In this document: in pieces, positions 1 through 22,613 of the stretch | Position numbering within the stretch: the first letter of the stretch is position 1 | How the letters are laid out: each line of letters begins with the position of its first letter | Notes under the pieces: generated by a model | What the model saw: the letters and a program-made list of their open reading frames with translations, nothing else | Database searches by the model: none | What the model was told of the DNA's origin: nothing | Program-made: the position numbers and the translations under genes | Source of the DNA: a virus | Taxonomy: Duplodnaviria > Heunggongvirae > Uroviricota > Caudoviricetes | IMG/VR virus record: IMGVR_UViG_2585427772_000010 | DNA length: 23,516 nucleotides | Strand: one strand, 5' to 3'

Positions 1-1011
1 TTATAACGTCACTCCGCCTTTTAGTGGATTCAGAGCGACGGCATTTTGCAGATAGTCAGGCGCAAGGTGCGCATAGGCCATCGTCTGCTGAATGCTCGCA
101 TGTCCCAGAATCTGTTGCAGTGCGATTATATTGCCCCCATTCATCATGAAATGGCTTGCGAATGTATGCCGCAGGATGTGGGTTGCCTGATTGGGTGGTA
201 TATCAGGTTTCACTCTGCGTAAAATCCCGCAAAATTTCTCATAATCAACTTTGAATAATTTGGCGCTGGCCTCCTCTTTAACTTTTTTCTCCAGTTCCTC
301 AGAAATCGGCACGGTTCGCTTTTTACCGTTTTTGGTTTTCAGGAAGGTAACCCTGCAATTTGTAATCTGTGCTGGTTTTAGCGTGGCAACTTCCGTCCAT
401 CTTCCTCCAGTGCTCAGACATAAAAGCGCGACAAGTAAGTCATCACCAGCCAAAACATTTAACAGTTTTTCGATTTCTGCTTTTTCCAGGAACGTCATTT
501 CAGGGTTGGCTTCCGCCAGTGGCGGCAGTCCGTGAATTGGGTGTTGCCCGGAAAATTCATCCAATTGAATTAATTTTGTGAACATGCCGGATAATCGGTA
601 CATGTCACGGTTTATCGTTGCGGCACTGATACCATCACGTAGTCGCATGGAACGATAATCCATCAAAGCCCTTTTGCTCATCCTGCTCACTGGTATATCA
701 CCTATGCCGCTGATGGTTTTGAGTAGATGATTAAACTCTTTTGTTCCATGCTCGTGGTTTTGCCCGTGATATTTCCACCAGATGTCCAGCAACTCACTCA
801 AAGTCCGGCGGTCTGCTCGCTGGCCTCCCCATTCTTTCTGACTGGCATTGGCGATTGTGTATCGCTCAAATGCTAGTGCTTCAGCTTTTCTTTCGAATTT
901 CCTGCGGATGCGTTTTCCGTCGCGGCCGCGAGGTCTAATGTCCACTTCATAGCGACCATCATCGAGCTTCTTAATTGCCATAAGAAAGCCCTCCGGCGCT
1001 GTATTCACCAT
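1..1011 (-). CDS. int: Tyrosine integrase (P2 Int-like)
   Basis: 336-aa ORF; C-terminal catalytic region with HxLRHTFAS and LGHASIQQTMAYAHL motifs typical of phage tyrosine recombinases; position next to the C repressor as in P2. Confidence 0.9.
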   Translation of the reverse strand: MVNTAPEGFLMAIKKLDDGRYEVDIRPRGRDGKRIRRKFERKAEALAFERYTIANASQKEWGGQRADRRTLSELLDIWWKYHGQNHEHGTKEFNHLLKTISGIGDIPVSRMSKRALMDYRSMRLRDGISAATINRDMYRLSGMFTKLIQLDEFSGQHPIHGLPPLAEANPEMTFLEKAEIEKLLNVLAGDDLLVALLCLSTGGRWTEVATLKPAQITNCRVTFLKTKNGKKRTVPISEELEKKVKEEASAKLFKVDYEKFCGILRRVKPDIPPNQATHILRHTFASHFMMNGGNIIALQQILGHASIQQTMAYAHLAPDYLQNAVALNPLKGGVTL

Positions 1012-1050
1012 CTTGGTAGCAAATGGTGAAAATGTAATCTTTATATAGAG

Positions 1051-1344
1051 TTAGCCAATCCTTTTCGCGGAGTGGTTGGACTCTGTTGACTCTGGCCCAA
1101 TGTGCGCGAGAGCCGGTGCGATTTGTCCTGCGTCCGGCGCGGTTTTATCTGTCATAAGCCATAGAGCATATTTTTGGAATGTGGGATGCATAGTGATTTT
1201 TAGCAAAGCTGTGCCACCAGGTTCAAAGTTTCCTCCTTCATATTTTTTAAGTGTGCTTAGTGGTAAGTCTATGATTTCACAGAATTTTGATTGGCTTAGC
1301 CCTTCAGCCTCACGCAAGGCCTTAATCTTTTCGCTTAATTTCAT
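1051..1344 (-). CDS. C: Immunity repressor C (HTH)
   Basis: 97-aa ORF with N-terminal helix-turn-helix-like segment (LSQSKFCEIIDLPLSTLKKYE); divergent from cox, same size and position as P2 C. Confidence 0.8.
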   Translation of the reverse strand: MKLSEKIKALREAEGLSQSKFCEIIDLPLSTLKKYEGGNFEPGGTALLKITMHPTFQKYALWLMTDKTAPDAGQIAPALAHIGPESTESNHSAKRIG

Positions 1345-1465
1345 TTGACATGGTGCCTATATAGGGACTAAATTCCCTCAAAACTGGAACCTATATAGGT
1401 TCCATTGATTTGAGAATAAACCAGCGTCTAAACGGTTTTGAGTGGTTTAGAAAGGGCTGGATCCT
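1345..1465. promoter_or_regulatory. Divergent C/cox promoter-operator region with two copies of the palindrome CCTATATAGG
   Basis: CCTATATAGG at 1356-1365 and 1390-1399; the second lies inside a perfect 18-bp palindrome GGAACCTATATAGGTTCC (1386-1403); located between the divergent repressor and cox starts. Confidence 0.4.
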
Positions 1466-1753
1466 ATGAGGGTACCATATATGGACGCTGAAAATTATGT
1501 GATTCAGTATCCGCTGGACGCGGTTCATGTGGATAAATTTGCTGATTTATTAGGGAAGCCAAAGACAGCCGTCAGTGAAATGGTGAAGGCAAATAAATTA
1601 CCAATTATTGAATTACGTGATCCTTGCAAACCGAAGGCTCGTGCCGGTGAAAAATGGGTTTTCATTCCTGAGTTTAATCGCGCTGTACGTGAGGCGTTTT
1701 ATAACCGACCGGTTGAACAGCGTGATGCATGGCTTTTGTGGATGGGGTTGTGA
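1466..1753 (+). CDS. cox: Cox-like excisionase/early transcription regulator
   Basis: 95-aa ORF first on the early rightward operon, size and position of P2 Cox; an internal start at 1481 is possible. Confidence 0.65.
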   Translation: MRVPYMDAENYVIQYPLDAVHVDKFADLLGKPKTAVSEMVKANKLPIIELRDPCKPKARAGEKWVFIPEFNRAVREAFYNRPVEQRDAWLLWMGL

Positions 1754-1755
1754 TT

Positions 1756-1926
1756 ATGAATGAGCCGCGTTGTATTGCTCAGTTATTGCGTAACGAAAGC
1801 CCCAGGGTGATTGACTTCACCATCACCCACGGGAAGGGACGCAAGGGAATCATTATCCGCACCAAAAAACAGAGTCCGTTAAAGAAGGCTCTGACCTTTC
1901 TGAAAAGCCGGAGGGTCTGGAAATGA
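1756..1926 (+). CDS. Small early protein (P2 orf78 position)
   Basis: ATG at 1756 directly after the cox stop (TGATTATG), in frame with ORF 1729-1926; ends overlapping the B start. Confidence 0.4.
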   Translation: MNEPRCIAQLLRNESPRVIDFTITHGKGRKGIIIRTKKQSPLKKALTFLKSRRVWK

Positions 1927-2423
1927 CAGTGATGACGCTTAATCTCGTTGAAAAACAGCCAGCAGCTATGCGCCGGATAATTGGTAAGCATCTGGCCGTC
2001 CCTCGCTGGCAGGATACATGTGATTATTATAATCAGATGATGGAACGCGAACGGCTAACAGTTTGCTTTCATGCGCAGTTAAAACAACGTCATGCAACGA
2101 TGCGTTTTGAAGAAATGAACGACGTCGAACGTGAACGGCTGGTTTGTGCAATTGATGAATTGCGTGGGGCATTCTCAAAACGCCGTCAGGTTGGCGCAAG
2201 TGAGTATGCATATATTAGTTTTTTAACAGTCAGTCAGCGTCGTACTTTATTTATGCATGCCGGATTGACTGAAAAAGAATTCAACCAGCCATACTGGCGA
2301 ATTAATGAAGAGTCATGTTACTGGCGTGATGCTTTATTCCGTGCATTACGTGAATTATTCAGCCTGTTTGAGTATGCACCGACAATTCTGACGTCGGTAA
2401 AACCAGAGCAATATCTGCATTAA
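1923..2423 (+). CDS. B: Replication protein B (helicase-loading accessory)
   Basis: 166-aa ORF, same length and position as P2 B; start overlaps the upstream stop (ATGA). Confidence 0.8.
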   Translation: MTVMTLNLVEKQPAAMRRIIGKHLAVPRWQDTCDYYNQMMERERLTVCFHAQLKQRHATMRFEEMNDVERERLVCAIDELRGAFSKRRQVGASEYAYISFLTVSQRRTLFMHAGLTEKEFNQPYWRINEESCYWRDALFRALRELFSLFEYAPTILTSVKPEQYLH

Positions 2424-2486
2424 ATAATTAACCAGAGTTTTAAACGCACTTAATCGTGCGGGGCTTCTTTTTGCCTGGAGAAAGTC

Positions 2487-2711
2487 ATGCATACAGTTTC
2501 TGAAAATCAGTGCGGTAAATACGCATTACTGCTGCAACAGGCCAGAACCGAAGCACAGGCTGACGCTGCGACGCGCTTTTCTTCTCATCTTGACGCCATG
2601 ATTCGCCATATCACAAAGGCGGAGTTATCCCGCGTGGAGATAGTCGAGCTACTCAGTCAGGAGTCGGAAAAATTTCACAATATCGGATTGTCTCGCGGGG
2701 AGGTGCTTTGA
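2487..2711 (+). CDS. Hypothetical early protein (P2 orf80 position)
   Basis: 74-aa ORF in the early operon between B and A; stop overlaps next start. Confidence 0.55.
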
Positions 2712-3010
2712 TGTCCTGTTCTCATTCAGTTGTATTACTGAATAACGCCTTAAAAATCGCCGTTATGAAAAATGGCGATTTGTCTCTTATCCAACTTTGT
2801 CTTGATAAAGAAAAACGCGACATCACTGAATCTGTTATCGCGATTTATCAGAGCGAATTAAACCTCCTGTCTGATGTGATCAATTTACTTGTGAAACGCG
2901 CTGTATTCCACAAGCAAATTTCCTCAGTGGATGAACTGACAAAATTAACGACAGAACTCGCCAGTTATTGCGCTGATGTATCCAGGAAACTTAACGATAA
3001 AAGGAGCTGA
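2708..3010 (+). CDS. Hypothetical early protein (P2 orf81 position)
   Basis: 100-aa ORF, translationally coupled to neighbours. Confidence 0.55.
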
Positions 3011-3012
3011 TA

Positions 3013-3237
3013 ATGCCGGACAACGTAGATTTTATTCAGGAACAACAGGCTGAATTACTGGAGCGCCAGATTAACGCGGCAAGGGTAAAACATTGCGGTG
3101 TTTCTTCGCTGGTTTGCGAAGAGTGTGACGCTCCAATACCTGCTGCCCGTCGTGCGGCTTATCCGTCAGCCACGCGTTGTGTTTCCTGTCAGTCAGTCTT
3201 TGAAGCAAAAAACAAACATTACCGGAGAACGGCATGA
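3013..3237 (+). CDS. TraR/DksA-type C4 zinc-finger protein (P2 orf82 position)
   Basis: 74-aa ORF with CxxC...CxxC (CEECDAPIP...RCVSCQ) characteristic of the DksA/TraR zinc-finger family. Confidence 0.65.
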   Translation: MPDNVDFIQEQQAELLERQINAARVKHCGVSSLVCEECDAPIPAARRAAYPSATRCVSCQSVFEAKNKHYRRTA

Positions 3238-3509
3238 GTATTCGTATTGAAATTGGCGAACGTTATGTCGTTACCAGTGACAGCTTTCAGTTTATTCTCC
3301 ACGAGAAAAAGAGAGCGGAAAGCGGTAAAAACGCCGGTCAGGAATGGCTGGCGGTGGTTGGTTATTACCCGAAATTAAGCCAGCTCGTTTCCGGCCTGAT
3401 GCATCACGATATTCTGACCGGAAGCGCAAAGTCTTTTGCTGATTTAAACGGGCAGGTTGAGCAACTCAGCAAGCGTTGTTCAGAGGCTTTTGGCTCATAT
3501 GGCCGTTAA
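3234..3509 (+). CDS. Hypothetical early protein (P2 orf83 position)
   Basis: 91-aa ORF, start overlaps orf82 stop; 3' end overlaps the A start by 11 nt. Confidence 0.55.
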   Translation: MSIRIEIGERYVVTSDSFQFILHEKKRAESGKNAGQEWLAVVGYYPKLSQLVSGLMHHDILTGSAKSFADLNGQVEQLSKRCSEAFGSYGR

Positions 3510-5778
3510 AGCCTCCGGGCGTTTTGTCCCTCCGTCAGCATTTGCCGCAGGCACCGGTAAGACGTTTACCGGTGCTTATGCATGGAACGCGCCACGCGAG
3601 GCCGTCGGGCGCGAAAGACCCCTTACACGTGACGAGATGCGTCAGGTGCAAGGTGTTTTATCCACGATTAACCGCCTGCCTTACTTTTTGCGTTCGCTGT
3701 TTACTTCACGCTATGACTACATCCGGCGCAATAAAAGCCCGGTGCACGGGTTTTATTTCCTCACATCCACTTTTCAGCGTCGTTTATGGCCGCGCATTGA
3801 GCGCGTGAATCAGCGCCATGAAATGAACACCGACGCGTCGTTACTGTTTCTGGCAGAGCGTGACCACTATGCGCGCCTGCCGGGAATGAATGACAAGGAG
3901 CTGAAAAAATTTGCCGCCCGTATCTCATCGCAGCTTTTCATGATGTATGAGGAACTCTGCGATGCCTGGGTGGATGCCCATGGCGAAAAAGAATCGCTGT
4001 TTACGGATGAGGCGCAGGCTCACCTGTATGGTCATGTTGCTGGCGCTGCACGTGCTTTCAATATTTCCCCGCTCTACTGGAAAAAATACCGTAAAGGACA
4101 GATGACCACGAGGCAGGCATATTCTGCCATTGCCCGCCTGTTTAACGATGAGTGGTGGACTCATCAGCTTAAAGGCCAGCGTATGCGCTGGCATGAGGCG
4201 TTACTGATTGCTGTCGGGGAGGTCAATAAAGACCGTTCTCCTTATGCCAGTAAACATGCCATTCGTGATGTGCGTGCACGCCGCCAGGCAAATCTGGAAT
4301 TTCTTAAATCGTGTGACCTTGAAAACAGGGAAACCGGCGAGCGCATCGACCTTATCAGTAAGGTGATGGGCAGTATTTCTAATCCTGAAATTCGCCGGAT
4401 GGAGCTGATGAACACCATTGCCGGTATTGAGCGTTACGCCGCAGCAGAGGGTGATGTGGGGATGTTTATCACGCTGACCGCGCCGTCAAAGTATCACCCG
4501 ACACGTCAGGTCGGAAAAGGCGAAAGTAAAACCGTCCAGCTAAATCACGGCTGGAACGATGAGGCATTTAATCCAAAGGATGCGCAGCGTTATCTCTGCC
4601 ATATCTGGAGCCTGATGCGCACGGCATTCAAGGATAATGATTTACAGGTCTACGGTTTGCGTGTCGTCGAGCCACACCACGACGGAACGCCGCACTGGCA
4701 TATGATGCTTTTTTGTAATCCACGCCAGCGTAACCAGATTATTGAAATCATGCGTCGCTATGCGCTCAAAGAGGATGGCGACGAAAGAGGAGCCGCGCGA
4801 AACCGTTTTCAGGCAAAACACCTTAACCGGGGCGGTGCTGCGGGATATATCGCGAAATACATCTCAAAAAACATCGACGGCTATGCACTGGATGGTCAGC
4901 TCGATAATGATACCGGTAGGCCGCTGAAAGACACAGCTGCGGCTGTTACCGCATGGGCGTCAACGTGGCGCATTCCGCAATTTAAAACGGTTGGTCTGCC
5001 GACAATGGGGGCTTACCGTGAACTACGCAAATTGCCTCGCGGCGTCAGCATTGCTGATGAGTTTGACGAGCGCGTCGAGGCTGCACGCGCCGCTGCAGAC
5101 AGTGGTGATTTTGCGTTGTATATCAGCGCGCAGGGCGGGGCAAATGTCCCGCGCGATTGTCAGACTGTCAGGGTCGCCCGTAGCCCGTCGGATGACGTTA
5201 ACGAGTACGAGGAAGAAGTCGAGAGAGTGGTCGGCATTTACGCGCCGCATCTCGGCGCGCGTCATATTCATATCACCAGAACGACGGACTGGCGCATTGT
5301 TCCGAAAGTGCCGGTCGTTGAGCCTTTGACTTTAAAAAGCGGCATCGCCGCGCCTCGGAGTCCTGTCAATAACTGTGGAAAGCTCACCGGTGGTGATACT
5401 TCGTTACCGGCTCCCACACCTTCTGAGCACGCCGCAGCAGTGCTTAATCTGGTTGATGACGGTGTTATTGAATGGAATGACCAGGAGGTCGTGAGGGCGC
5501 TCAGGGGCGCATTAAAACGAGGTCTGAGAAGACCAAACCGTCAGCAAAGAAACGGAAGCCCGTTAAAACAGCATGAAATGGCACCATCGGCCAGACTGAC
5601 CCGGTCAGAACGAATGCAAATTACCCGTATCCGCGTTGACCTTGCTCAGAACGGTATCAGGCCGCAGCGATGGGAGCTTGAGGCGCTGGCGCGTGGAGCA
5701 ATTGTAAATTACGACGGGAAAAAATTCACGTATCCAGTCGCTGATGAGTGGCGGGGATTCTCAGCAGTAATGGAGTGA
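3499..5778 (+). CDS. A: Replication initiation protein A (rolling-circle HUH endonuclease)
   Basis: Long ORF; start placed at the internal ATG 3499 (MAVKASGRF...) by comparison with P2 A as I recall it; contains an HUH-like motif (PHWHMML) and a tyrosine pair (GYIAKYISK) expected for rolling-circle initiators. Confidence 0.9.
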   Translation: MAVKASGRFVPPSAFAAGTGKTFTGAYAWNAPREAVGRERPLTRDEMRQVQGVLSTINRLPYFLRSLFTSRYDYIRRNKSPVHGFYFLTSTFQRRLWPRIERVNQRHEMNTDASLLFLAERDHYARLPGMNDKELKKFAARISSQLFMMYEELCDAWVDAHGEKESLFTDEAQAHLYGHVAGAARAFNISPLYWKKYRKGQMTTRQAYSAIARLFNDEWWTHQLKGQRMRWHEALLIAVGEVNKDRSPYASKHAIRDVRARRQANLEFLKSCDLENRETGERIDLISKVMGSISNPEIRRMELMNTIAGIERYAAAEGDVGMFITLTAPSKYHPTRQVGKGESKTVQLNHGWNDEAFNPKDAQRYLCHIWSLMRTAFKDNDLQVYGLRVVEPHHDGTPHWHMMLFCNPRQRNQIIEIMRRYALKEDGDERGAARNRFQAKHLNRGGAAGYIAKYISKNIDGYALDGQLDNDTGRPLKDTAAAVTAWASTWRIPQFKTVGLPTMGAYRELRKLPRGVSIADEFDERVEAARAAADSGDFALYISAQGGANVPRDCQTVRVARSPSDDVNEYEEEVERVVGIYAPHLGARHIHITRTTDWRIVPKVPVVEPLTLKSGIAAPRSPVNNCGKLTGGDTSLPAPTPSEHAAAVLNLVDDGVIEWNDQEVVRALRGALKRGLRRPNRQQRNGSPLKQHEMAPSARLTRSERMQITRIRVDLAQNGIRPQRWELEALARGAIVNYDGKKFTYPVADEWRGFSAVME

Positions 5779-6107
5779 ACGTCGCCAGTTGCGAAAATTA
5801 TTTACAGGGGGCAGCGTTAAGCATCTAAAGATCTTGTTCTATGATTAGAATGTTTCCTCGTTGCACTCTCGTATAGTTATTTAATGGGAAGATGTACTCT
5901 ATATGTTGTGTTTTGGTGATAAATGAAGCCAAAGGAAGGAGATTTTGCTTGATTGATGGGCGCTCTTTGCTATACACCTTGTATTGAGAAGGAGAAGTAA
6001 TCAAGGATTAAGCTGGCTTTTGTCAAAAATCTGAAAAGCTTTTTTGACTGAATACGATAGCGAGTTGTACTATTTGCGCCCTCAAAAGTAACCGGCGGCT
6101 GGGTAAA

Positions 6108-6482
6108 ATGGGGAAGCAAGGCAAAGGCAAAGGCAACAAAAATCAGGTTAAGGTTACGTGGGCTCAGGCGTGGCGGGATGTAATGATAAGAGCCATGTCT
6201 AATGGTCAGTTGATACCTATTACCATCAGTATTATTTTAATGATTGCTGCATGGAGGTTACCAAAAACAGACTTGTCCAATTTAGCCTTCTCTATTGTTG
6301 ATGGCTTTAAGGAGCATTCCTTGGTTGGTTGGGCTATCTCGGTAATAGTGGGTTTGGCTTGGTCTGCACATGCGCGAATCATGAGGCGCTGTTTTAGTTC
6401 CGAGGCACAGAGAATCGGTAACGAGAAAACAAAGTATCAACAAAGACAGACCACTCAAGCCTTGGGTACAAGTGATAAATAG
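6108..6482 (+). CDS. Small membrane protein with two predicted TM helices (cargo gene 1)
   Basis: 124-aa ORF; lysine-rich N-terminus, hydrophobic segments LIPITISIILMIAAW and LVGWAISVIVGLAWSA; AT-rich; start uncertain (alternative ATGs at 6183 and 6195). Confidence 0.5.
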   Translation: MGKQGKGKGNKNQVKVTWAQAWRDVMIRAMSNGQLIPITISIILMIAAWRLPKTDLSNLAFSIVDGFKEHSLVGWAISVIVGLAWSAHARIMRRCFSSEAQRIGNEKTKYQQRQTTQALGTSDK

Positions 6483-6502
6483 TTGTTTATTTAGGAGTTA
6501 TT

Positions 6503-7060
6503 ATGCTGACAGTGCTGTTTTATGTGCTGTTGGGTTTAGGCGCAGCACACTTCATTTACGAGCGAATCATTTTGCCGTCCATCCGACTTCATTATAGAAA
6601 CCAATTGTTTGCGCTTCGTGATGTCGCTAGGAGGAAAATCATTGATGGAGGTTCCGATACTTCCATGCAAGCGGCAACACTTGTGCATGACTCATTGAAT
6701 AACGCTATCAATAGATTGCATTTACTCACGTTGCCAAACAAATTTCGTGCTCAAAAGCGTATGGCAGAAAACCATGCAATAAGGCAGAAAATTCGGCGTG
6801 AGATAGATGTTTTCAAACGCTGTGATGATAGAGAAGTTGTTGATGTACTGTTTAAATCCGGTCGGATACTTGAAAATGTACTGTTATTCAATAGCTTAAT
6901 GTTATTGCTTTACATGTTTCCATTTGTCCTTGCTGTATGGTTCTGTGTTAGGGTCATAAAGACAGCAAGTAGTTTAGTACAGTGGGTCAAAGGAAGAGAT
7001 TTAGAGGAAGCTATAATGCTGCTTCCTGATACTCAGGTTGAAAAGGTTGTATACGCATAA
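6503..7060 (+). CDS. Membrane protein with N- and C-terminal hydrophobic helices (cargo gene 2)
   Basis: 185-aa ORF; AGGAG 6 nt upstream of the ATG; 20-nt gap from gene 1 (operon); hydrophobic N-terminus (LTVLFYVLLGLGAAHFIY) and C-proximal helix (LLFNSLMLLLYMFPFVLAVWFCV); followed by a terminator. Confidence 0.65.
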   Translation: MLTVLFYVLLGLGAAHFIYERIILPSIRLHYRNQLFALRDVARRKIIDGGSDTSMQAATLVHDSLNNAINRLHLLTLPNKFRAQKRMAENHAIRQKIRREIDVFKRCDDREVVDVLFKSGRILENVLLFNSLMLLLYMFPFVLAVWFCVRVIKTASSLVQWVKGRDLEEAIMLLPDTQVEKVVYA

Positions 7061-7089
7061 AAATCACCCCTTAGGGGGTGATTTTTTTA
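7061..7089 (+). terminator. Rho-independent terminator
   Basis: ATCACCCC-TTAG-GGGGTGAT hairpin followed by a 7-T run immediately after the 6503-7060 stop. Confidence 0.7.
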
Positions 7090-7299
7090 CATGACTTTTG
7101 ATTAGCTGACATTGTAAATCCGCATGTATCAGATGCATTGTTTTGCATGTGGAAATGGGTGTTTTCACTGCCAGCTATCGCTACATGTAGCAAAAACACG
7201 GGCTTAATAAGAAATCATTCTGCCATAAGGCATAACTTCCCCGCGTGCTCAGGTATTGACGTCATAGATATGGATCTTTTTTAATCAAGGTATGGTATT

Positions 7300-8247
7300 A
7301 TGAAGATATTTATTAGTTGGTCAGGTCAGGACAGCCTGGAGATAGCAAAAGTATTACGGGATTGGATACCGAATGTTATTCAAGTAGCTGAGCCGTACGT
7401 ATCAGCGGAAGATATTGATAAAGGCACTCGCTGGGCGACTGATATATCAAAGGAACTTGATGACTCTTCTTATGGGATTATTTGCCTTACAAAAAATAAT
7501 ATTAATGCACCGTGGATAAATTTTGAGGCGGGGGCTTTAGGTAAAAAGGTTGATAAGAGCCGGGTTAGTCCTTTCTTGTTTAAAATTAAACCATCTGAGA
7601 TAACAGGCCCAATATTACAATTCCAGTATACTCGTTCGGATGATAAGAACGATATTTTGAAGTTGATGTTGTCAATAAATAATCAAGCAGGATTTTTGAC
7701 TGAAGAACGCTTAACTAAAGCTTTCGAGCAATGGTGGCCAAGTTTAGAGCGTGAGTTAGATAACATTCAAGATATTAACCCTGTAGATAAAGATTCCACT
7801 AAAAAAACAAAAGGTGATTCGACTTCTGAGATACAAAATCTTTCCAAAATTGTTGAAAGTTTGCTGGATATTAGCCGAACAAATCACCAATTATTGCGTG
7901 ATCCAGCATCATTATTGCCAGAAGAATATGTTAGCAAAATAATAAACAGGGAAGGGCGTAAAGAAACTGTTTTAAAAATTGTAGCTTCTGATTTATTATC
8001 CATGCATCATTCACTAATTCGTGTAAAAAGAAGATTTATTCGTCGTGGTATTGATGAAACATCTAGGAGCGAGTTAATTGAATCATTAAATAAAATGATA
8101 ATGGATTGTTCTAGAGTAATCGCTCACTTAGATAATTATTGTGGGGCTTCATCAAACAATATGTTCAATAGTGCGCTTAGATTGCGGACCAGAAATTTAA
8201 TTGACATGATGGATGAGGAGGATGCAGAACGGGATGAAATGGAATAA
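7300..8247 (+). CDS. TIR-like domain protein with uncharacterised helical C-terminal half (cargo gene 3)
   Basis: 315-aa ORF; N-terminal ~130 aa carries the bacterial TIR-like pattern (KIFISWSGQD ... GIICLTKNN ... PWINFEAG) with a glutamate at the position of the catalytic Glu of TIR NADases; C-terminal ~170 aa is charged/helical and unrecognised. The domain call is from motif reading only. Confidence 0.6.
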   Translation: MKIFISWSGQDSLEIAKVLRDWIPNVIQVAEPYVSAEDIDKGTRWATDISKELDDSSYGIICLTKNNINAPWINFEAGALGKKVDKSRVSPFLFKIKPSEITGPILQFQYTRSDDKNDILKLMLSINNQAGFLTEERLTKAFEQWWPSLERELDNIQDINPVDKDSTKKTKGDSTSEIQNLSKIVESLLDISRTNHQLLRDPASLLPEEYVSKIINREGRKETVLKIVASDLLSMHHSLIRVKRRFIRRGIDETSRSELIESLNKMIMDCSRVIAHLDNYCGASSNNMFNSALRLRTRNLIDMMDEEDAERDEME

Positions 8248-8791
8248 TCAATTTTGACTAATCATAAATAATTTTGCATATATAAACTTATAATGCCGCA
8301 GCCGCTATTTTTCAGCGGCTGTATATCGCTTATAATGGGTATGTTATTTTTATTTTGATAAAATCATTAAAATTGTCGATGTTATATGAATGCACATGTA
8401 TTATTAATGTTAGAAGATTATGCCTGCTTACGGCTATTGTGCTGAATTCAACTATGAACGCATCAGTATTAAAATCGTTCCATGAAATGTTCTTCGTCTA
8501 CAGCAGATGATGGGCAACGAAAAAATGACGCTGAGTGAGTTGGTCGGGGAGAATTGTTAGAGGTATTTATGGAGTGGTTTAATAATATCGGTCAATCCTG
8601 AGTTGCAGCATCACATAGACGATAGGGAATCTCTCCAGTCGTTCTGGAATGGCAGCGTTGAACAACAAGCACAGCGAGGCGTTAGATGCCCATCAGATTG
8701 ACACAGAGGGTTTATGAATCGCTGGGATTTACTTAGTTTGAAAAATAATATATTTATATGTTTTTGTATTGTGTTTGTTAAGGAGTTTGGA

Positions 8792-8998
8792 TTGAAAAGA
8801 AAACTGATTTGTGTTATGGCTTTTTGGGGGGCGTTGCTGGCTGGTTGTAATGAGAGTAATAAAAAAGAAGTTGAGGGTTGTATTGAAAGAGGTGTCCAAT
8901 ATTTTATAGAGATTGGTTCTTACCCTAAATTAAGTGATGGGCGTGATGCTGTAAAAGTTGCTACTGAACGTTGTAATAGAACAATAACGGCTTTCTGA
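8792..8998 (+). CDS. Small predicted lipoprotein (cargo gene 4)
   Basis: Track ORF 8714-8998; preferred start is the in-frame TTG at 8792, preceded by AAGGAG (8780-8785), giving a classical lipoprotein signal peptide (KRK, hydrophobic core, lipobox LLAG-C); about 49-aa mature protein with three further Cys. Confidence 0.5.
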   Translation: MKRKLICVMAFWGALLAGCNESNKKEVEGCIERGVQYFIEIGSYPKLSDGRDAVKVATERCNRTITAF

Positions 8999-9000
8999 TA

Positions 9001-9918
9001 ATGGATTATACGAGCTATATAATAGGACAGCTTCAGGTTGAGGATATTATTGATGCAATTAAAGGCGTTAATAATACTAATGTCATAAAAGATTATGTGC
9101 TGCCTGTAGTATTACCAATTATATCTTCTGTGCTGAGTTACTTTATTGCAACTAGGTTGTTTTATCGGCAGGAGGACCTTAAAGCACAAAGAAGAAAGGT
9201 AAGCGTTGTAAATAAATGTATTTATGACTACTTTTCTGCAATGACAACGTTGTTGCAAATTAAAGGGAATTATTATGGTGGGGTAAGTATAAGTGAAAAT
9301 CCTATCGAGAGGGCTTTAGCTTTTCCTGTTGTGGTTTTTTCTGGTGCTCCTCTATCATCAGATTTAAGTGAGTTGGCCTGTATATTGAGTCAAAAGGGAG
9401 TAGGGAATAATAGAGAGCCAGCAAAGACTACTAACTGGGGGGATGCTTTTGCTGTTAGTGATATAGCAAGAAGGTTTAACAGCCTATTGGCTGCATTAAA
9501 TGTTAGGAATGATTTTGATGACACCTATAGAGGAATGATTATTGAATCAACAGGTTCACCTTTGCCTACGATGCGTTTTAAAAATGATGATATTGTTAAT
9601 GCTATAGGTAGTAATAAGGCAGCTTATTACATTGATATTACTGAGCAAATAATGATTATGATAGATGTTTTGTTGCTTGATATTAATCTGTTGCTCAAAG
9701 AGTTGCCATTGTATGCTGAATCGCTGTTTGACAAAAGAGTAATGCAAGAAGATTCAGGGATTCTTAAATTCAATGATTTGCACGAACGTTTTCCTCTACT
9801 TATGAAACCTGTAACGCCACCTTCGATTAAACTCATGTCTGATTATTTGGGGTACAGTGAAGATGAGATCTTACGACGCTATCCATACCCGTTCTTTAAT
9901 ATGCATGATTGTGAATGA
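9001..9918 (+). CDS. Uncharacterised 305-aa protein with one N-proximal TM helix (cargo gene 5)
   Basis: ATG 2 nt after the lipoprotein stop (coupled); hydrophobic segment VLPVVLPIISSVLSYFIATRLF; AT-rich; no family recognised. Confidence 0.7.
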   Translation: MDYTSYIIGQLQVEDIIDAIKGVNNTNVIKDYVLPVVLPIISSVLSYFIATRLFYRQEDLKAQRRKVSVVNKCIYDYFSAMTTLLQIKGNYYGGVSISENPIERALAFPVVVFSGAPLSSDLSELACILSQKGVGNNREPAKTTNWGDAFAVSDIARRFNSLLAALNVRNDFDDTYRGMIIESTGSPLPTMRFKNDDIVNAIGSNKAAYYIDITEQIMIMIDVLLLDINLLLKELPLYAESLFDKRVMQEDSGILKFNDLHERFPLLMKPVTPPSIKLMSDYLGYSEDEILRRYPYPFFNMHDCE

Positions 9919-10021
9919 ATGTGCATATGTCAGAAGCCGTTTTTATTGTCAGTTATCGTCAGTGCTGGCGCGCTCTTGGAGTGTTCATGCAACTGCATTA
10001 AAACCGCCCCACGAAGCGGGC

Positions 10022-10040
10022 GGGCGAGGCGGGGAAAGCA
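10022..10040. other. cos site (19-nt cohesive-end sequence of P2-type phages)
   Basis: Exact GGCGAGGCGGGGAAAGCAC, which I recall as the P2/P4 cohesive end, in the expected position between the old/tin locus and Q. Confidence 0.6.
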
Positions 10041-10171
10041 CTGCGCGCTGGCGGGGGTGATGATTGTCTGAGCGCGTCGTGATGGCGTTTAGATTGTGCG
10101 CCGGGGCGTTGGTGTGTCTGCGGGGTGTTTTGTACAGTGGCGAGCGTGTGAGGGCGTGATGACGGGGGTGT

Positions 10172-10193
10172 AAAAAAGCCGCCCGCAGGCGGC
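10172..10193 (-). terminator. Rho-independent terminator downstream of Q
   Basis: GCCGCC-CGCA-GGCGGC hairpin with an A-run on the plus strand (a T-run on the minus strand) immediately 3' of the Q stop. Confidence 0.5.
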
Positions 10194-10198
10194 GATGT

Positions 10199-11233
10199 TC
10201 AGCCGTTGTCAGTGTCCAGTGAGTAGTTTTTAAAGCGGATGACCTCCTGACCGAGCCAGCCGTTTATTTCCCGAATCCTGTCCTGTAACGGGATAAGTTC
10301 ATTGCGGACAAAGACCTTTGCCACTTTCTCAATATCGCCCAGCGACCCGACGTTTTCCGGCTTGCCACCCATCAACTGAAAGGGGATGCGGTGCGCGTCC
10401 AGCAGGTCAGCGGCGCTGGCTTTTTTGATATTAAAAAAATCGTCCTTCGTGGCCACTTCACTGAGCGGGATAATTTTAATGCCGTCGGCTTTTCCCTGTG
10501 GGGCATAGAGAAACAGGTTTTTAAAGTTATTGCGGCCTTTCGACTTCACCATGTTTTCGCGGAGCATTTCGATATCGTTGCGATCCTGCACGGCATCAGT
10601 GACGTACATGATGTATCCGGCATGTGCGCCGTTTTCGTAATACTTGCGGCGGAACAGCGTGGCCGACTCATTCAGCCAGGCAGAGTTAAGGGCGCTGAGA
10701 TATTCCGGCAGACCGTACAGCTCCTGATTAATATCCGGCTCCAGCAGGTGAAACACGGAGCCGGGCGCGAAAGGTGTCGGCTCGTTGAAGGACGGCACCC
10801 ACCAGTAAACATCCTCCTCCACGCCACGGCGGGGATATTTTGCCGGGGAGGGTTCCAGTCTGATGACCTTACCGGTGGTGCTGTAACGCTTTTCCAGAAA
10901 CGCATTACCGAATACCAGAAAATCCAGCACAAAGCGGCTGAAATCCTGCTGAGAAAGCCACGGGTGTGGGATAAACGTTGAGGCCAGAATGTTACGTTTG
11001 ACGTAAATCGGTGAGCTGTGATGCACGGCAGCACGCAGGCTTTTTGCCAGACCGGTAAAGCTGACTGGTGGCTCATACCATCTGCCGTTACTGATGCACT
11101 CGACGTAATCCAGAATGTCACGGCGGTCGAGTACCGGCACCGGCTCACCAAAGGTGAATGCCTCCATTTTCGGGGCGCTGGCGGTCATTTTTTTTGCCGC
11201 AGGTTGCGGTGTTTTCCCTTTTTTCTTGCTCAT
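10199..11233 (-). CDS. Q: Portal protein Q
   Basis: 344-aa ORF, same length and position as P2 Q; start ATG overlaps the P stop (TGATG). Confidence 0.9.
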   Translation of the reverse strand: MSKKKGKTPQPAAKKMTASAPKMEAFTFGEPVPVLDRRDILDYVECISNGRWYEPPVSFTGLAKSLRAAVHHSSPIYVKRNILASTFIPHPWLSQQDFSRFVLDFLVFGNAFLEKRYSTTGKVIRLEPSPAKYPRRGVEEDVYWWVPSFNEPTPFAPGSVFHLLEPDINQELYGLPEYLSALNSAWLNESATLFRRKYYENGAHAGYIMYVTDAVQDRNDIEMLRENMVKSKGRNNFKNLFLYAPQGKADGIKIIPLSEVATKDDFFNIKKASAADLLDAHRIPFQLMGGKPENVGSLGDIEKVAKVFVRNELIPLQDRIREINGWLGQEVIRFKNYSLDTDNG

Positions 11234-11795
11234 CAGTAAAACTCCAGAATGGTGGATGTCAGCGGGGTGCTGATACCGGCGGTGAGTGGCTCATTTAACA
11301 GGGCGTGCATGGTCGCCCAGGCGAGGTCGGCGTGGCTGGCTTCCTCGCTACGGCTGGCCTCATAGGTGGCGCTGCGTCCGCTGCTGGTCATGGTCTTGCG
11401 GATAGCCATGAACGAGCTGGTGATGTCGGTGGCGCTGCGTCCGCTGCTGGTCATGGTCTTGCGGATAGCCATGAACGAGCTGGTGATGTCGGTGGCGCTG
11501 ACGTCATATTCCAGACAGCCACGGCGGATGACGTCTTTTGCCTTGAGCACCATTGCGGTTTTCATTTCCGGCGTGTAGCGGATATCGCGTGCGGCGGGAT
11601 AGAACGAGCGCACGAGCTGGAACACGCCGACACCGAGGCCGGTGGCATCAATTCCGATGTATTCGACGTTGTATTTTTCGGTGAGTTTGCGGATGGATTC
11701 CGCCTGAGTGGCAAAGTCCATGCCTTTCCACTGGTGACGCTCAAGTATTCTGAATTTACCTCCGGCCACCACCGGCGGTGCCAGCACCACGCATC
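11233..11795 (-). pseudogene. P: Terminase large subunit P, C-terminal fragment only, carrying an in-frame 63-bp tandem duplication
   Basis: Only ~185 codons remain of a gene that is ~590 codons in P2; the reading frame runs into the K fragment on the other strand; the upstream promoter and N-terminal part are absent. Confidence 0.8.
11368..11493. repeat. Perfect 63-bp tandem duplication (2 copies) inside the P remnant
   Basis: 11368-11430 and 11431-11493 are identical; the 10-mer GGTGGCGCTG precedes each copy and a partial third GGCGCTG follows; encodes a duplicated 21-aa segment (SATDITSSFMAIRKTMTSSGR). Confidence 0.9.
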
Positions 11796-11797
11796 CG

Positions 11798-12250
11798 GCG
11801 CTGGCCGTGTCCGAAGGGACGGCGAATCATCCGCTGACGAAAAACCGGGGCTATGACGTGATAGTCACCGGACTGGACGGAAAGCCGGAAATTTTCACCG
11901 ACTACAGTGACCACCCGTTCGCACATGGTCGACCGGCGAAGGTGTTTAACCGTCGCGGTGAAAAATCCACGGCCTCCGGTCGCTATCAGCAGCTTTACCT
12001 GTTCTGGCCGCATTACCGCAAACAGCTTGCCCTGCCGGATTTCAGTCCGTTGTCACAGGACAGGCTCGCCATTCAGTTGATCCGCGAACGCGGTGCACTG
12101 GATGACATCCGGGCGGGACGCATTGAGCGCGCCATTTCACGCTGTCGCAATATCTGGGCGTCCCTGCCGGGTGCCGGTTACGGTCAGCGTGAGCATCCAC
12201 TGGAAAAACTGGTCACCGTCTGGCGTACCGCCGGCGGCGTACCGGCTTAA
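11798..12250 (+). pseudogene. K: Endolysin K (lambda R-like lytic transglycosylase), 5'-truncated
   Basis: Translation (SEGTANHPLTKNRGYDVIV ... IWASLPGAGYGQ) aligns with lambda R from about its residue 17 onward; the catalytic-Glu motif SEGT is retained but the N-terminus, RBS and upstream holin gene are missing. Confidence 0.75.
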
Positions 12251-12264
12251 ACGGAGTAAACACC

Positions 12265-12690
12265 ATGAAGAAATTATCCCTTTCACTGATGCTGAATGTG
12301 CCGCTGGCGCTGATGCTGGCACTGTCCCTGATTTACCCGCAGAGCGTGGCCGTCAGTTTTGTCGCCGCCTGGGCGATTCTGGCGACGGTTATCTGTGTGG
12401 TTGCCGGTGGTGTCGGCGTGTATGCCACTGAGTATGTGCTGGAACGCTACGGGCGGGAGCTGCCGCCGGAATCGCTGGCCGTGAAGATTGTCACGTCGCT
12501 GTTTTTGCAGCCGGTGCCGTGGCGCAGACGGGCAGTAGCTCTGGTGGTGATGGTGGCGACGTTTATCTCGCTGGTCGCTGCCGGGTGGATTTTTACCGCG
12601 CTGATTTATCTTGTGGCGTCGCTGTTTTTCCGGCTGATACGTAAAGCCTGCCGTCAGCGTTTTGAGGGGCGGGAACCATGTCAAAGCTGA
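12265..12690 (+). CDS. lysA: LysA (membrane protein of the P2 lysis cassette)
   Basis: 141-aa strongly hydrophobic multi-TM protein directly after K, as in P2. Confidence 0.8.
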   Translation: MKKLSLSLMLNVPLALMLALSLIYPQSVAVSFVAAWAILATVICVVAGGVGVYATEYVLERYGRELPPESLAVKIVTSLFLQPVPWRRRAVALVVMVATFISLVAAGWIFTALIYLVASLFFRLIRKACRQRFEGREPCQS

Positions 12691-13103
12691 TGATTGTGCT
12701 GGTTGTGCTGTTATCGCTGGCGGTGGCGGGGCTGTTTCTGGTGAAGCATGAAAACGCCAGCCTGCGCGCCTCGCTGGACAGGGCGAACAACGTCGCCAGT
12801 GAACAGCAGACGACCATCACCATGCTGCAAAATCAGCTTCATGTTGCCATCACCAGGGCAGACAAAAACGAGCTGGCGCAGGTGGCACTGCGTCAGGAAC
12901 TGGAGAACGCCGCGAAGCGTGAAGCACAGCGCGAGAAAACCATCACGAGGTTACTTAATGAAAACGAAGATTTTCGCCGCTGGTATGGCGCTGACCTGCC
13001 TGATGCTGTGCGCCGGTTGCACCAGCGCCCCGCCTGCACCGACGCCAGTGATTGTCGCCAACGCCTGCCCGAAAGTGAGCCTTTGCCCGATGCCGGGCAG
13101 TGA
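12678..13103 (+). CDS. lysB: LysB, Rz-like inner-membrane spanin
   Basis: 141-aa ORF with N-terminal TM helix followed by coiled-coil-like region; overlaps lysA stop. Confidence 0.8.
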   Translation: MSKLMIVLVVLLSLAVAGLFLVKHENASLRASLDRANNVASEQQTTITMLQNQLHVAITRADKNELAQVALRQELENAAKREAQREKTITRLLNENEDFRRWYGADLPDAVRRLHQRPACTDASDCRQRLPESEPLPDAGQ

Positions 13104-13248
13104 CCCGGAGACGAACGGCGATTTAAGTGCCGATATCCGGCAGCTTGAGAACGCGCTGGCACGTTGTGCCAGCCAGGTAAAAATGATTAAACACTGTCAG
13201 GACGAAAACGATGCTCAAACCCGACAGCCTGCGCAGGGCGCTGACTGA
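12958..13248 (+). CDS. lysC: LysC, Rz1-like outer-membrane lipoprotein spanin, embedded in +1 frame of lysB
   Basis: Internal ATG at 12958 of track ORF 12748-13248 gives MKTKIFAAGMALTCLMLCAGC... with lipobox LCAG-C and a proline-rich mature region; starts inside lysB and extends beyond it. Confidence 0.7.
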   Translation: MKTKIFAAGMALTCLMLCAGCTSAPPAPTPVIVANACPKVSLCPMPGSDPETNGDLSADIRQLENALARCASQVKMIKHCQDENDAQTRQPAQGAD

Positions 13249-13678
13249 TGCCGTCACGGTGCTGAAAACTAACCCCGATATGCTGCGGATATTCGTGGAT
13301 AACGGGAGTATTGCCTCCACACTGGCGGCGTCGTTGTCATTCGAAAAGCGTTACACGCTCAATGTCATTGTGACCGACTTTACCGGTGATTTTGACCTGC
13401 TCATCGTGCCGGTGCTGGCGTGGCTGCGGGAAAATCAGCCCGACATCATGACCACCGACGAAGGCCAGAAAAAGGGCTTCACGTTTTATGCAGACATCAA
13501 CAATGACAGCAGCTTTGATATCAGTATCAGCCTGATGCTGACCGAGCGCACGCTGGTCAGTGAGGTTGACGGTGCGCTGCATGTGAAGAATATCCCGGAA
13601 CCTCCGCCGCCGGAGCCAGTCAATCGCCCGATGGAGCTTTATATCAATGGTGAACTGGTGAGCAAGTGGGATGAATGA
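13211..13678 (+). CDS. R: Tail completion protein R
   Basis: 155-aa ORF, same length and position as P2 R. Confidence 0.85.
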   Translation: MLKPDSLRRALTDAVTVLKTNPDMLRIFVDNGSIASTLAASLSFEKRYTLNVIVTDFTGDFDLLIVPVLAWLRENQPDIMTTDEGQKKGFTFYADINNDSSFDISISLMLTERTLVSEVDGALHVKNIPEPPPPEPVNRPMELYINGELVSKWDE

Positions 13679-14123
13679 GTTTAAGCGTTTTGAAGACCGA
13701 CTGACCGGACTGATTGAATCGCTGTCACCGTCTGGGCGTCGGCGACTGAGTGCAGAACTGGCGAAACGTCTGCGGCAGAGTCAGCAGCGTCGGGTGATGG
13801 CACAGAAAGCTCCGGACGGCACACCCTACGCACCACGCCAGCAGCAGAGCGCCAGAAAAAAGACCGGTCGCGTTAAGCGAAAAATGTTTGCGAAACTTAT
13901 CACCAGTCGTTTTTTGCATATCCGCGCCAGCCCTGAACAGGCATCAATGGAGTTTTACGGCGGGAAGTCACCGAAAATCGCCAGTGTGCATCAGTTCGGT
14001 CTGTCGGAAGAAACCCGGAAAGACGGTAAGAAAATTGATTATCCGGCGCGTCCTCTGCTCGGCTTTACCGGTGAGGATGTGCAGATGATTGAAGAGATTA
14101 TCCTGGCTCACCTTGAGCGTTAG
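13671..14123 (+). CDS. S: Tail completion protein S
   Basis: 150-aa ORF overlapping the R stop, same length and position as P2 S. Confidence 0.85.
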   Translation: MNEFKRFEDRLTGLIESLSPSGRRRLSAELAKRLRQSQQRRVMAQKAPDGTPYAPRQQQSARKKTGRVKRKMFAKLITSRFLHIRASPEQASMEFYGGKSPKIASVHQFGLSEETRKDGKKIDYPARPLLGFTGEDVQMIEEIILAHLER

Positions 14124-14194
14124 TTTTATCCAGACAGAGGCTGATGCGCAATTAAACATTGAGCGGCCATGCTGGTCGCTCAATGTTTAGAGGT

Positions 14195-14980
14195 TTATGA
14201 GTGATTTTTATTTGATGCTTTGTATTCTAAAACCTTCTTATTGGCGTAAAAGAATTTTGTATATGACAGGAATATAACCAGACCTGAAGTGAAATAGACG
14301 AGGGATAGTATTAATAATGCTTTTTTGCGACTGTTATTATCTTTAATCTCCAGGCTTAACCATTCGGAGTCCTCCTCGTTTAGCTGTAAGAGCTTATTGC
14401 AGGCGATTTCAGGAAGTGTGTCTTTTATAAATACGTTTTGCAGTCTCTTGCAATCGGCAAGGCTATAAGTTTTATTAAATTCAACTGCTTTATTTTTGAA
14501 GGATAAAAGAACTTTGTCACTATAAACATAGTACATCATGTTTTTATATGGTATGCCTATGGCATCCCTTACTATAACGGATTGTTCGTTGTGTATGTAA
14601 CATGCGAGGAGAATGTAAAAAATACTGGCCAGAATTACAATTATTGTTTTAATTATGTGTGGTGGTTTTGTTATGTCACCCCAGATGCGAGTAAGGAAAA
14701 AATACGATGTTTTTAGTTTTCCATCAATCAGTCCCTGCTGTATCATTCTCACATTTTCAATGCCTGATACATTGATTCCGTTAATTATTTTAAATAGTTG
14801 AATGTCGCGCCACTCGCGGTCAAGTCTTTTTAATTTTTTGTCTGAATATCCAAAATTGAAATAATGTGCAATAAGCCTCATAAGGTTACTTTTACCAAAG
14901 CTAAAAAATGCTAATACTGCAAAGCTACAAAGGAAAAAAACGATTAGCCCCCACACATTAGTCACATTATAGCTGACCAT
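14195..14980 (-). CDS. AT-rich multi-pass membrane protein at the orf30 position, antisense to the late genes
   Basis: 261-aa ORF; AAGGAGAG 5 nt upstream of the ATG on the minus strand; about three hydrophobic helices; composition visibly more AT-rich than flanking S and V. Confidence 0.7.
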   Translation of the reverse strand: MVSYNVTNVWGLIVFFLCSFAVLAFFSFGKSNLMRLIAHYFNFGYSDKKLKRLDREWRDIQLFKIINGINVSGIENVRMIQQGLIDGKLKTSYFFLTRIWGDITKPPHIIKTIIVILASIFYILLACYIHNEQSVIVRDAIGIPYKNMMYYVYSDKVLLSFKNKAVEFNKTYSLADCKRLQNVFIKDTLPEIACNKLLQLNEEDSEWLSLEIKDNNSRKKALLILSLVYFTSGLVIFLSYTKFFYANKKVLEYKASNKNHS

Positions 14981-19535: not shown

Positions 19536-19538
19536 TTT

Positions 19539-20066
19539 ATGCAGCATTTAAAAAATATTACTGCGGGTAATCCAAAAACTGTTGCCCAATATCAACTGAC
19601 AAAAAATTTTGATGTTATCTGGTTATGGTCCGAAGAGGGAAAAAACTGGTATGAGGAAGTAAGTAATTTTCAGGAAGACACGATAAAGATTGTTTACGAC
19701 GAGAATAATATAATTGTCGGCATCACCAGAGATGCTTCAACGCTTAACCCTGAAGGTTTCAGCGTTGTCGAGGTTCCTGATATTACCTCCAACCGACGTG
19801 CTGATGACTCAGGTAAATGGATGTTTAAGGATGGTGCCGTGATTAAGCGGATTTATACGGCAGATGAACAGGAGCAACAGGCAGAATCACAAAAAGCAGC
19901 TTTACTTTCCGAAGCGGAAAGCGTTATTCAGCCACTGGAACGCGCTGTCAGGCTGAATATGGCGACGGATGAGGAATGCGCACGACTGGAGTCATGGGAA
20001 CGCTACAGCGTTCTGATCAGCCGTGTGGATCCTGCAAATCCTGAATGGCCGGAAATGCCGCAATAA
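19539..20066 (+). CDS. G: Tail fibre assembly chaperone G
   Basis: 175-aa ORF immediately after H, same length and position as P2 G. Confidence 0.85.
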
Positions 20067-22532: not shown

Positions 22533-22613
22533 ATCCTCAATTTGCCTGCTGCTTAATGCATTGCAGATGATTTGCTTCCGTTATACTACCGTCAGTTGAT
22601 AGCGGGAGTATTT

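Follow-up and report, generated by a model that had tools for sequence, protein, structure and literature searches.

What occupies the interval between the replication gene A and the cos site of a P2-like prophage, and how did it come to be there? The question is raised by a 23,516-nt stretch of Caudoviricetes DNA (IMG/VR record IMGVR_UViG_2585427772_000010; hereafter the window), the whole of which is a P2-like prophage that runs from the stop codon of int to host DNA past ogr, in the order int, C, cox, B, orf80-83, A, island, cos, Q and late genes. An earlier note, written from the letters of this DNA, had proposed that an AT-rich cargo island takes the place of tin and old between the stop codon of A and about position 9940. 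We are highly confident that positions 5781-9993 are the gpA-cos defence hotspot of a P2_AC1-type prophage and that it holds two independent modules acquired by recombination: the known 2TM-1TM-TIR cassette (module 1, about 5781-8330), and a lipoprotein gene followed by the gene for a membrane protein of 305 amino acids (aa; module 2, about 8642-9993).

An acquired island in the gpA-cos interval

The island and its borders comprise the following features, with strand in brackets.

3457-5778 (plus; probable ATG at 3499): replication gene A, the conserved left border (Pfam Phage_GPA, 1.6e-124)
5779-6107 (plus): non-coding leader of the TIR cassette, with no open reading frame (ORF) of a known family
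6108-6482 (plus): 2TM membrane protein, 124 aa (PADLOC 2TM-TIR, 2.2e-58, full length; phrog_33772, 9e-76)
6503-7060 (plus): 1TM membrane protein, 185 aa (PADLOC 1TM-TIR, 2.7e-75; hydrophobic segments at residues 1-19 and 131-149)
7059-7086 (plus): terminator-like hairpin with a T run, 3' of the 1TM gene and 5' of the TIR gene (RNA fold -17.8 kcal/mol, z = -5.5, equalled by 0 of 200 shuffles)
7300-8247 (plus): TIR-domain protein, 315 aa (Pfam TIR_2, 4.7e-10; PADLOC TIR-TM, 2.3e-118)
8298-8322 (plus): hairpin 3' of the TIR gene, possibly a terminator, with a poor T run (RNA fold -15.9 kcal/mol, z = -3.1)
8488-8642 (plus): decayed fragment of a small gene normally found 3' of DUF3850/orf91 (nucleotide identity; tblastn 2e-6 to 7e-6)
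8792-8998 (plus): module 2 gene 1, predicted lipoprotein precursor of 68 aa (MKRKLICVMAFWGALLAG/C), its start placed by relatives, AAGGAG and PHROG
9001-9918 (plus): module 2 gene 2, 305-aa single-pass membrane protein of an uncharacterised family, starting 2 nt past the lipoprotein stop
9994-10041: right border, a conserved 29 nt and then the 19-nt cos GGCGAGGCGGGGAAAGCAC (10023-10041), from local alignment to the P2 right end and cosL/cosR annotation
10199-11233 (minus): portal gene Q, the right flank (Pfam Phage_portal; homology to P2 positions 1-1728)

Base composition and codon usage both set the island apart. The GC content is 0.377 over 5779-9940, against 0.486 over 1-5778 and 0.563 over 9941-14190, and the island is the lowest-GC stretch of 4162 nt in the window (minimum 0.376 at 5801); the profile, at 0.52-0.57 in A, drops to 0.32-0.43 over 5779-9940 and returns to 0.51-0.57 at cos and Q. 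Measured over the full 4.2 kb from 5779 to 9993, GC is 37.7%, with flanks of 49-56%. At third codon positions (GC3) the five island genes have values of 0.22-0.46, compared with 0.55-0.69 for A, Q, lysA/B, R, S, V, W, J and I, and their synonymous-codon distance to the core is 1.58, where random core subsets of equal size give 0.41 +/- 0.07 (z = 16). Taken singly, the TIR gene and the 305-aa gene each lie at a distance of 1.73, as against 0.66-1.04 for int, Q, J and the N-terminal part of H, core genes of comparable length; the values of the 2TM and 1TM genes stand out less and overlap those of C, cox and B, early genes that are richer in AT (GC3 0.38-0.42). The compositional drop claimed in the earlier note is therefore borne out, and the GC and codon-usage comparison it had suggested gives profiles that do differ from the phage core. 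Its further statement that all five ORFs read on the plus strand is also correct: those of at least 90 aa lie at 6108-6482, 6503-7060, 7300-8247, 8714-8998 and 9001-9918, and minus-strand ORFs do not exceed 69 aa.

Alignment to P2, the other check suggested, defined both edges. P2 homology stops at 5780, two bases past the A stop codon (5776-5778), and restarts at 9994, 29 nt ahead of cos; both flanks are 92-97% identical to P2, with gene A at 97% nucleotide identity. The right end had been placed at about 9940, which rightly lies past the last gene (stop at 9918) but some 50 nt short of the true edge. Searches of the whole window by tblastn gave no match to P2 Orf91, Tin, Old or Fun(Z) (best E = 0.31) and recovered P2 Orf30 at 98.9%, in agreement with the claim that no island gene resembles Old or Tin. 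An Rfam scan of 5600-10300 at E <= 1 retrieved no RNA family, and repeat searches of the island gave short matches of chance size, with no flanking repeats and no att-like sites. A 14-nt match between 5810 and 8651 was considered as a duplication and dropped, because the junctions in five loci show no duplication.

The gpA-cos interval is a documented defence hotspot of P2 (PMC9122126; PMC13586616), and its content differs among otherwise similar P2-like phages. P2 itself carries orf91-tin-old there; the prophages of Escherichia coli MS 16-3 and Salmonella carry a DUF3850 gene, a small gene and module 2; KC-Dl-1 has the DUF3850 gene and the small gene with a different gene; and E. coli HVV53 has module 2 alone. 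The island occupies the position of orf91-tin-old, its flanks match P2 and no homology exists inside, which supports the proposal of a variable accessory hotspot with acquired genes. That the low GC might instead be mere local variation in conserved P2 core DNA, for which the likewise fairly AT-rich early genes C, cox and B could be quoted, is practically out of the question and is refuted by synteny: P2 homology is absent from the entire island, other P2-like phages hold wholly different genes at this place, and the island occurs in P2_AC1 alone of 50,697 phage records and in 14-19 of 5426 complete E. coli genomes.

Escherichia phage P2_AC1 is the nearest phage, with 98.7% identity over window positions 1-10022, and its A-cos hotspot (OV192280 / NC_070903) is 99.6% identical to the island; no further record with the island was found among the 50,697 phage records. 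Identities of 99.4-99.9% were obtained for the island in 14 of the 5426 complete E. coli genomes. Table S5A of Rousset et al. 2022 (PMC9122126) already contains these five genes in this arrangement, and four of the five accessions given there for the proteins are identical. The island was thus already known in sequence and arrangement, and in function for three of its five genes; the parts that remain new are the two-gene candidate module and the natural history of the hotspot swap. The hotspots of P2_AC1 and the window agree in position, gene order and strand, and they differ in that P2_AC1 has a -1 frameshift (T5G5) in a lipoprotein gene that is intact in the window (T5G6), and in that AC1 is a viable phage whereas the window is a doubly deleted prophage. 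Comparison with P2 orf91-tin-old shows the same interval and the same role as anti-phage cargo expressed in the lysogen. However, the two share no sequence similarity, lie on opposite strands and measure 3.2 kb (P2) and 4.2 kb (island), and their mechanisms are unrelated, Old being an ATPase-nuclease and Tin targeting T-even phages.

The 2TM-1TM-TIR cassette

By their matches to profile models, the first three genes are the system called 2TM-1TM-TIR in PADLOC and Rst_2TM_1TM_TIR in DefenseFinder; the three PADLOC matches are near full length, and the order is that of AC1. In the TIR protein, Pfam TIR_2 covers residues 3-113 with 40.5 bits against a gathering score of 28, so that an N-terminal TIR domain is followed by about 170 C-terminal residues that match no family; a hydropathy scan found no transmembrane segment in this protein and two hydrophobic segments in the so-called 1TM protein. 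A gap of 20 nt separates the 2TM gene from the 1TM gene, and the TIR gene starts 214 nt beyond the hairpin at 7059-7086. This hairpin and that at 8298-8322 suggest two transcription units, an operon of the two genes for small membrane proteins and a separate gene for a probably cytoplasmic TIR protein; the hairpin at 7059-7086 is missing from the output of the terminator scan. The leader contains a sigma-70-like site at 6044-6073 (TTGACT-18-TACTAT), which is a consensus match only, in a region where the count of such sites does not exceed that of shuffles. Elsewhere, a relative of TIR residues 1-150 with 41% identity lies in lambdoid phage mEp390 at 33766-34218, under the annotation 'hypothetical'.

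Rousset et al. 2022 isolated AC1 and found that its lysogens resist lambda and LF82_P8 (PMC9122126); the cloned three-gene AC1 system reproduces the lysogen phenotype and blocks P2 as well (PMC9122126). The block to phages therefore rests on the AC1 cassette, whose proteins differ by 0-2 residues each from those of the window: the 1TM proteins are identical and the TIR proteins differ by one substitution (A283V). In the 2TM gene, a GGCAAA (Gly-Lys) repeat near the N terminus (6117-6140) has one unit fewer than in P2_AC1, giving 124 instead of 126 aa.

Protection was demonstrated with this near-identical cassette, and every step of the mechanism that follows is one that we infer. Infection would activate the TIR domain, with E76 as candidate catalytic residue, and NAD+ would be cleaved. 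A weak alignment (E = 0.66-1.4) pairs E76 (PWINFEAG) with the Glu of the AbTIR sequence WTNYEL (7UWG, 8G83); this Glu belongs to the W-x-x-x-E motif of AbTIR, an NADase, and is its catalytic residue. From there, a signal derived from ADP-ribose may activate the membrane proteins and bring about membrane collapse, a course of events to which we give an even chance. The membrane proteins might instead be sensors or scaffolds, with NAD+ depletion by the TIR effector itself stopping the infected cell; this second scheme appears unlikely by comparison, though by no means negligible. The first scheme is close to that of Rousset et al., who proposed that a nucleotide signal made by the TIR protein activates the membrane proteins (PMC9122126).

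Several points weigh against this picture. Neither the 2TM nor the 1TM protein has a recognisable ligand- or nucleotide-binding domain or any Pfam domain, which weakens the signal scheme and is the reason for keeping the depletion scheme open. The alignment of E76 with AbTIR is weak (E about 1), and no paper on the mechanism of 2TM-1TM-TIR was found in the literature searched. Moreover, the carrier prophage has lost about 10.7 kb, and the phenotype data come from the AC1 cassette rather than from this copy.

Thoeris (Ofir et al. 2021) offers a close parallel for signalling of this kind: in its type II, the TIR protein ThsB signals to a membrane-spanning ThsA. The likeness lies in a stand-alone TIR-protein gene beside small membrane-protein genes, for which a TIR-signal model has been proposed (PMC9122126). 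The island differs in having two distinct membrane proteins and no Macro, SLOG or SIR2 domain, and the signal molecule is hypothetical here; the ThsA and ThsB models of PADLOC matched no island protein at E <= 0.1.

A candidate envelope module

The first gene of module 2 lies within the ORF 8714-8998, whose true start is most likely the TTG at 8792: it is preceded by AAGGAG, it is replaced at the same site by ATG in E. coli MS 16-3 and by GTG in Salmonella, and phrog_32041 covers residues 27-94 of the long ORF, that is, it begins at this start. The product of 8792-8998 is, on sequence grounds, a typical lipoprotein precursor, with a basic n-region, a hydrophobic core and a lipobox of the form [LVI][ASTVI][GAS]C, and lipid modification is predicted. 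The mature lipoprotein would have about 49 aa and contains two more invariant Cys; in five variants down to 59% identity, the invariant positions are the lipobox G-C, C30, C61 and a C-terminal ERCNRT.TAF. Residue +2 is Asp in three of the five variants and Asn in the window. Since Asp at +2 is an inner-membrane retention signal, the location of the window lipoprotein is uncertain. A match to the entry-exclusion lipoprotein EexN (NCBIfam, E = 0.06) was dismissed, because it spans the signal peptide only.

Within the signal-peptide sequence, the T5G6 run at 8829-8839 has only five G in P2_AC1, in E. coli M21816 and in two IMG/VR contigs, causing a -1 frameshift, while MS 16-3 has T7G4 and remains in frame. 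The G5 form reflects either pseudogenisation in one sub-lineage or homopolymer slippage. With its lipoprotein gene frameshifted, AC1 yields lysogen data that say little about module 2.

The second gene encodes a 305-aa protein with a conserved N-terminal amphipathic helix, one transmembrane helix (about residues 32-54) and an all-helical bundle; it differs from its AC1 counterpart at two residues. Its AlphaFold2 model was built from an alignment of 60 sequences, an earlier run with three sequences having been poor (predicted local distance difference test score, pLDDT, of 55). Fold searches with the model retrieved generic helical bundles only, and hhalign showed no relation of the family to the 1TM and TIR proteins. 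Among 52 family members with a detected hydrophobic segment, Lys and Arg residues flanking it average 3.4 on the C-terminal side and 1.8 on the N-terminal side, a bias that would put a short N terminus in the periplasm and most of the protein in the cytoplasm.

An exhaustive HMMER search delimited the family at 168 clusters at 50% identity, whereas a word-indexed search gave very close relatives only. In the roughly ten contexts inspected, members are found mostly with mobile-element or defence genes. One distant relative lies 3' of hsdS in a type I restriction-modification operon, another adjoins the integrase of a P4-like satellite, and a third immediately follows a gene whose product matches the PADLOC candidate PDC-S67 (1e-22). 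Others occur near a TIR gene, unrelated to that of the island, and a RadC fragment; in a region with an integrase and IS21; near a Mor gene in a Mu-like region; and downstream of a secreted DUF4124 protein beside a pair resembling a helix-turn-helix protein and an antitoxin.

Together, the two products would form a pair of a periplasmic lipoprotein and a single-pass inner-membrane protein whose helical bundle is probably cytoplasmic, and an envelope-level mechanism is the most natural one because a periplasmic lipoprotein is paired with an inner-membrane protein. Phage exclusion at the envelope or abortive infection may be the most likely role of module 2, an assignment that comes close to an even chance without reaching it. 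Success rates in such hotspots bear on this question: in P2 hotspots three of eight tested systems were protective (PMC9122126), and in P4 hotspots six of eight randomly chosen loci without assigned function protected against phages (PMC13586616). Combining these rates with the gene contexts, we consider an antiviral function slightly less than evenly balanced. As a full description we advance, tentatively, that the pair at 8792-9918 may be an autonomous, undescribed envelope-associated anti-phage module in which a disulfide-bonded lipoprotein and a bundle protein would block genome entry or trigger abortive infection.

Against this description, searches of PADLOC, Pfam, NCBIfam, PDB and BFVD gave no match of the 305-aa protein that points to an activity, and at least one distant relative sits among ordinary chromosomal, housekeeping genes. 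The context evidence amounts to guilt by association over about ten contexts, with no statistical test. Further, the three-gene clone alone reproduced the AC1 lysogen phenotype, although in AC1 the lipoprotein gene is frameshifted.

Known prophage proteins that act in the envelope to exclude superinfecting phages include the Llp lipoprotein of T5, the Cor lipoproteins of phi80 and N15, Imm and Sp of T4, SieA of P22 and gp15 of HK97. Module 2 resembles them in that the lysogen carries, in an accessory slot of the phage, paired genes for a small lipoprotein and an inner-membrane protein. The likeness is one of architecture only, and no similarity in sequence or fold was detected.

The alternative that survives best is a lysogenic-conversion function, ranking second behind exclusion or abortive infection: module 2 would be a moron that changes the envelope for the benefit of the host, for example in serum or stress resistance. 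Small prophage lipoproteins are often conversion factors, lambda Bor being an example, and such a function would agree with the absence of any defence-family match and with the distant homologue among housekeeping genes. Cargo unrelated to defence also occurs in this hotspot, for instance partition systems and cytolethal distending toxin (Rousset et al., PMC9122126). However, the relatives found within a type I restriction-modification operon, in a P4-like satellite and next to a gene that PADLOC lists as a defence candidate argue in the other direction, as does the protective effect of six of eight random P4-hotspot loci (PMC13586616), and on balance we regard conversion as rather unlikely. 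A spanin-like lysis pair bridging the envelope, suggested superficially by the combination of a small lipoprotein with a single-pass protein rich in long helices, is very improbable, because the module lies outside the lysis cassette and lysB/lysC, the spanin genes of P2, are found at 12678-13248, its two genes stand in the reverse order, an Asp at position +2 would retain three of five lipoprotein variants in the inner membrane, the charge bias puts the large domain in the cytoplasm of the predicted topology, and most P2-like phages lack the module.

Two modules with separate histories

Module 2 is a separate unit, independent of module 1. It occurs without the TIR cassette in P2 prophages of E. 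coli MS 16-3 and Salmonella, and E. coli HVV53 and one IMG/VR contig carry nothing else in the A-Q interval. The pair is kept together at identities of 57% (305-aa protein) and 60% (lipoprotein) in a metagenomic P2-like hotspot, and of 53% and 59%, respectively, in HVV53. Of the 19 complete E. coli genomes with module 2 among the 5426, 14 have the TIR cassette, one lacks it, and four are enterotoxigenic (ETEC) strains with a variant of 67% identity. In the metagenomic hotspot with the 57% variant we also observed, following the pair, a third cargo gene (1808-3109), encoding 433 aa, with weak matches to PADLOC DzbB (2e-4) and to Pfam MauJ.

Could all five genes nevertheless form one defence system, with the lipoprotein and the 305-aa protein accessory to the TIR system? 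All 14 complete E. coli genomes with the TIR cassette hold module 2 directly downstream on the same strand, and a distant 305-aa homologue adjoins a TIR gene. Yet the 14 copies are 99.4-99.9% identical and represent a single lineage rather than independent co-occurrences; being near-clonal, they provide no argument for a five-gene system. The three genes by themselves gave the defence phenotype; AC1, M21816 and two IMG/VR contigs combine a frameshifted lipoprotein gene with an intact TIR cassette; and at least four further hotspot arrangements have module 2 by itself. The two modules are set apart by a hairpin and the relic of a gene, and the TIR beside the distant homologue is unrelated to that of the island. 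We thus consider a single system highly unlikely.

The relic at 8488-8642 retains about 20 readable codons (VLRLQQMMGNEKMTLSELVG) followed by a stop, and the N-terminal 21 codons are missing. It shows 72-77% nucleotide identity over most of its length (up to 87% over the shortest pieces) with a gene annotated as hypothetical protein in about 185 E. coli genomes, in which the intact small gene lies 3' of a DUF3850/orf91-like gene directly after A, an arrangement seen in the A-Q interval of KC-Dl-1. The hotspots of the MS 16-3 and Salmonella P2 prophages have the order A - DUF3850 - small gene - lipoprotein - 305 aa, and their homology to the window extends from about 8642-8657 to cos. The island is a mosaic of a TIR cassette, a decayed small-gene fragment and a separate two-gene module. 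Because the relic lies between the modules, the TIR cassette probably entered an older hotspot at the expense of the DUF3850 gene and the 5' half of its small gene; in the simplest history, the ancestor would have had the order still seen in MS 16-3 and Salmonella, into which the TIR cassette was swapped. Such a replacement agrees with the rapid swapping described by Moura de Sousa et al. 2026.

The island is also found in another carrier. In strain 0-4 it is present at 99.9% identity in a P2-like prophage integrated next to yegR, whose int-C-cox module is unrelated to window positions 1-1755 (72-80% over short pieces) and whose attachment site is different; the same island with another integrase and immunity region indicates that either the island or the carrier backbone has recombined across immunity and integration types. 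The MS 16-3 locus has, in addition, an AT-rich insert (8402-9700) with a 333-aa gene between cos and Q, on the far side of cos from the usual hotspot; this gene has no PADLOC match.

The ends of the prophage in the window are marked by two further features.

1-1011 (minus): int, the start of the P2-like prophage
22572-23516: host gene for a cation-efflux protein on the ogr side (Pfam Cation_efflux and ZT_dimer)

Compared with P2_AC1 and P2, about 10.7 kb are missing from the prophage through two internal deletions, and the element is therefore defective. The first, of 5.3 kb, fuses the C-terminal third of the terminase gene P to the middle of K, with the loss of most of P and all of O, N, M, L, X and Y; the second, of 5.4 kb, fuses the start of FI to the middle of D, with the loss of FII, E, T and U. 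Each junction (about 11800-11803 and 21314-21317) has a 4-nt overlap, and the first was absent from the 5426 complete E. coli genomes and from representative genomes. All reading frames of the cargo genes are intact in this defective prophage. The 3' remnant of P (about 11330-11450) has some 63 nt more than in P2 and AC1, which resemble a direct duplication, GGTGGCGCTGCGTCCGCTGCTGG being present twice.

Three other regions of the window are low in GC. A second AT-rich cargo slot (20288-20881, plus strand, GC 0.35) lies at the position of P2 fun(Z) and also exists in P2_AC1; its 197-aa ORF is dissimilar to Fun(Z) and matches nothing in Pfam or PADLOC. The third AT-rich patch (14195-14980, minus strand, GC 0.34) is orf30, 98.9% identical to P2 Orf30 and with no family match, and it is a conserved accessory gene that has not been swapped. 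Likewise, GC is lowered to 0.41-0.45 over 18914-20139, where gene G and the C-terminal part of the tail-fibre gene H are only 80-87% identical to P2, or do not match it, and both match P2_AC1; this is the usual exchange of a host-range cassette. No tRNA genes were found in the window.

In all, a reading of raw sequence located a defence hotspot that the analysis resolved to a published, validated system, which serves as a positive control. The island displays the swap without pseudogenisation of defence genes that characterises the dynamics of P2 and P4 hotspots, with the relic recording an earlier occupant, and in the decayed prophage the reading frames of both cargo modules are intact despite the loss of genes for packaging and the tail. 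The two-gene envelope module, with the family of some 168 clusters behind its 305-aa protein, is a candidate for cloning; if its proposed role is true, the 305-aa protein would define a widespread new defence family whose periplasmic or membrane partners differ by lineage.

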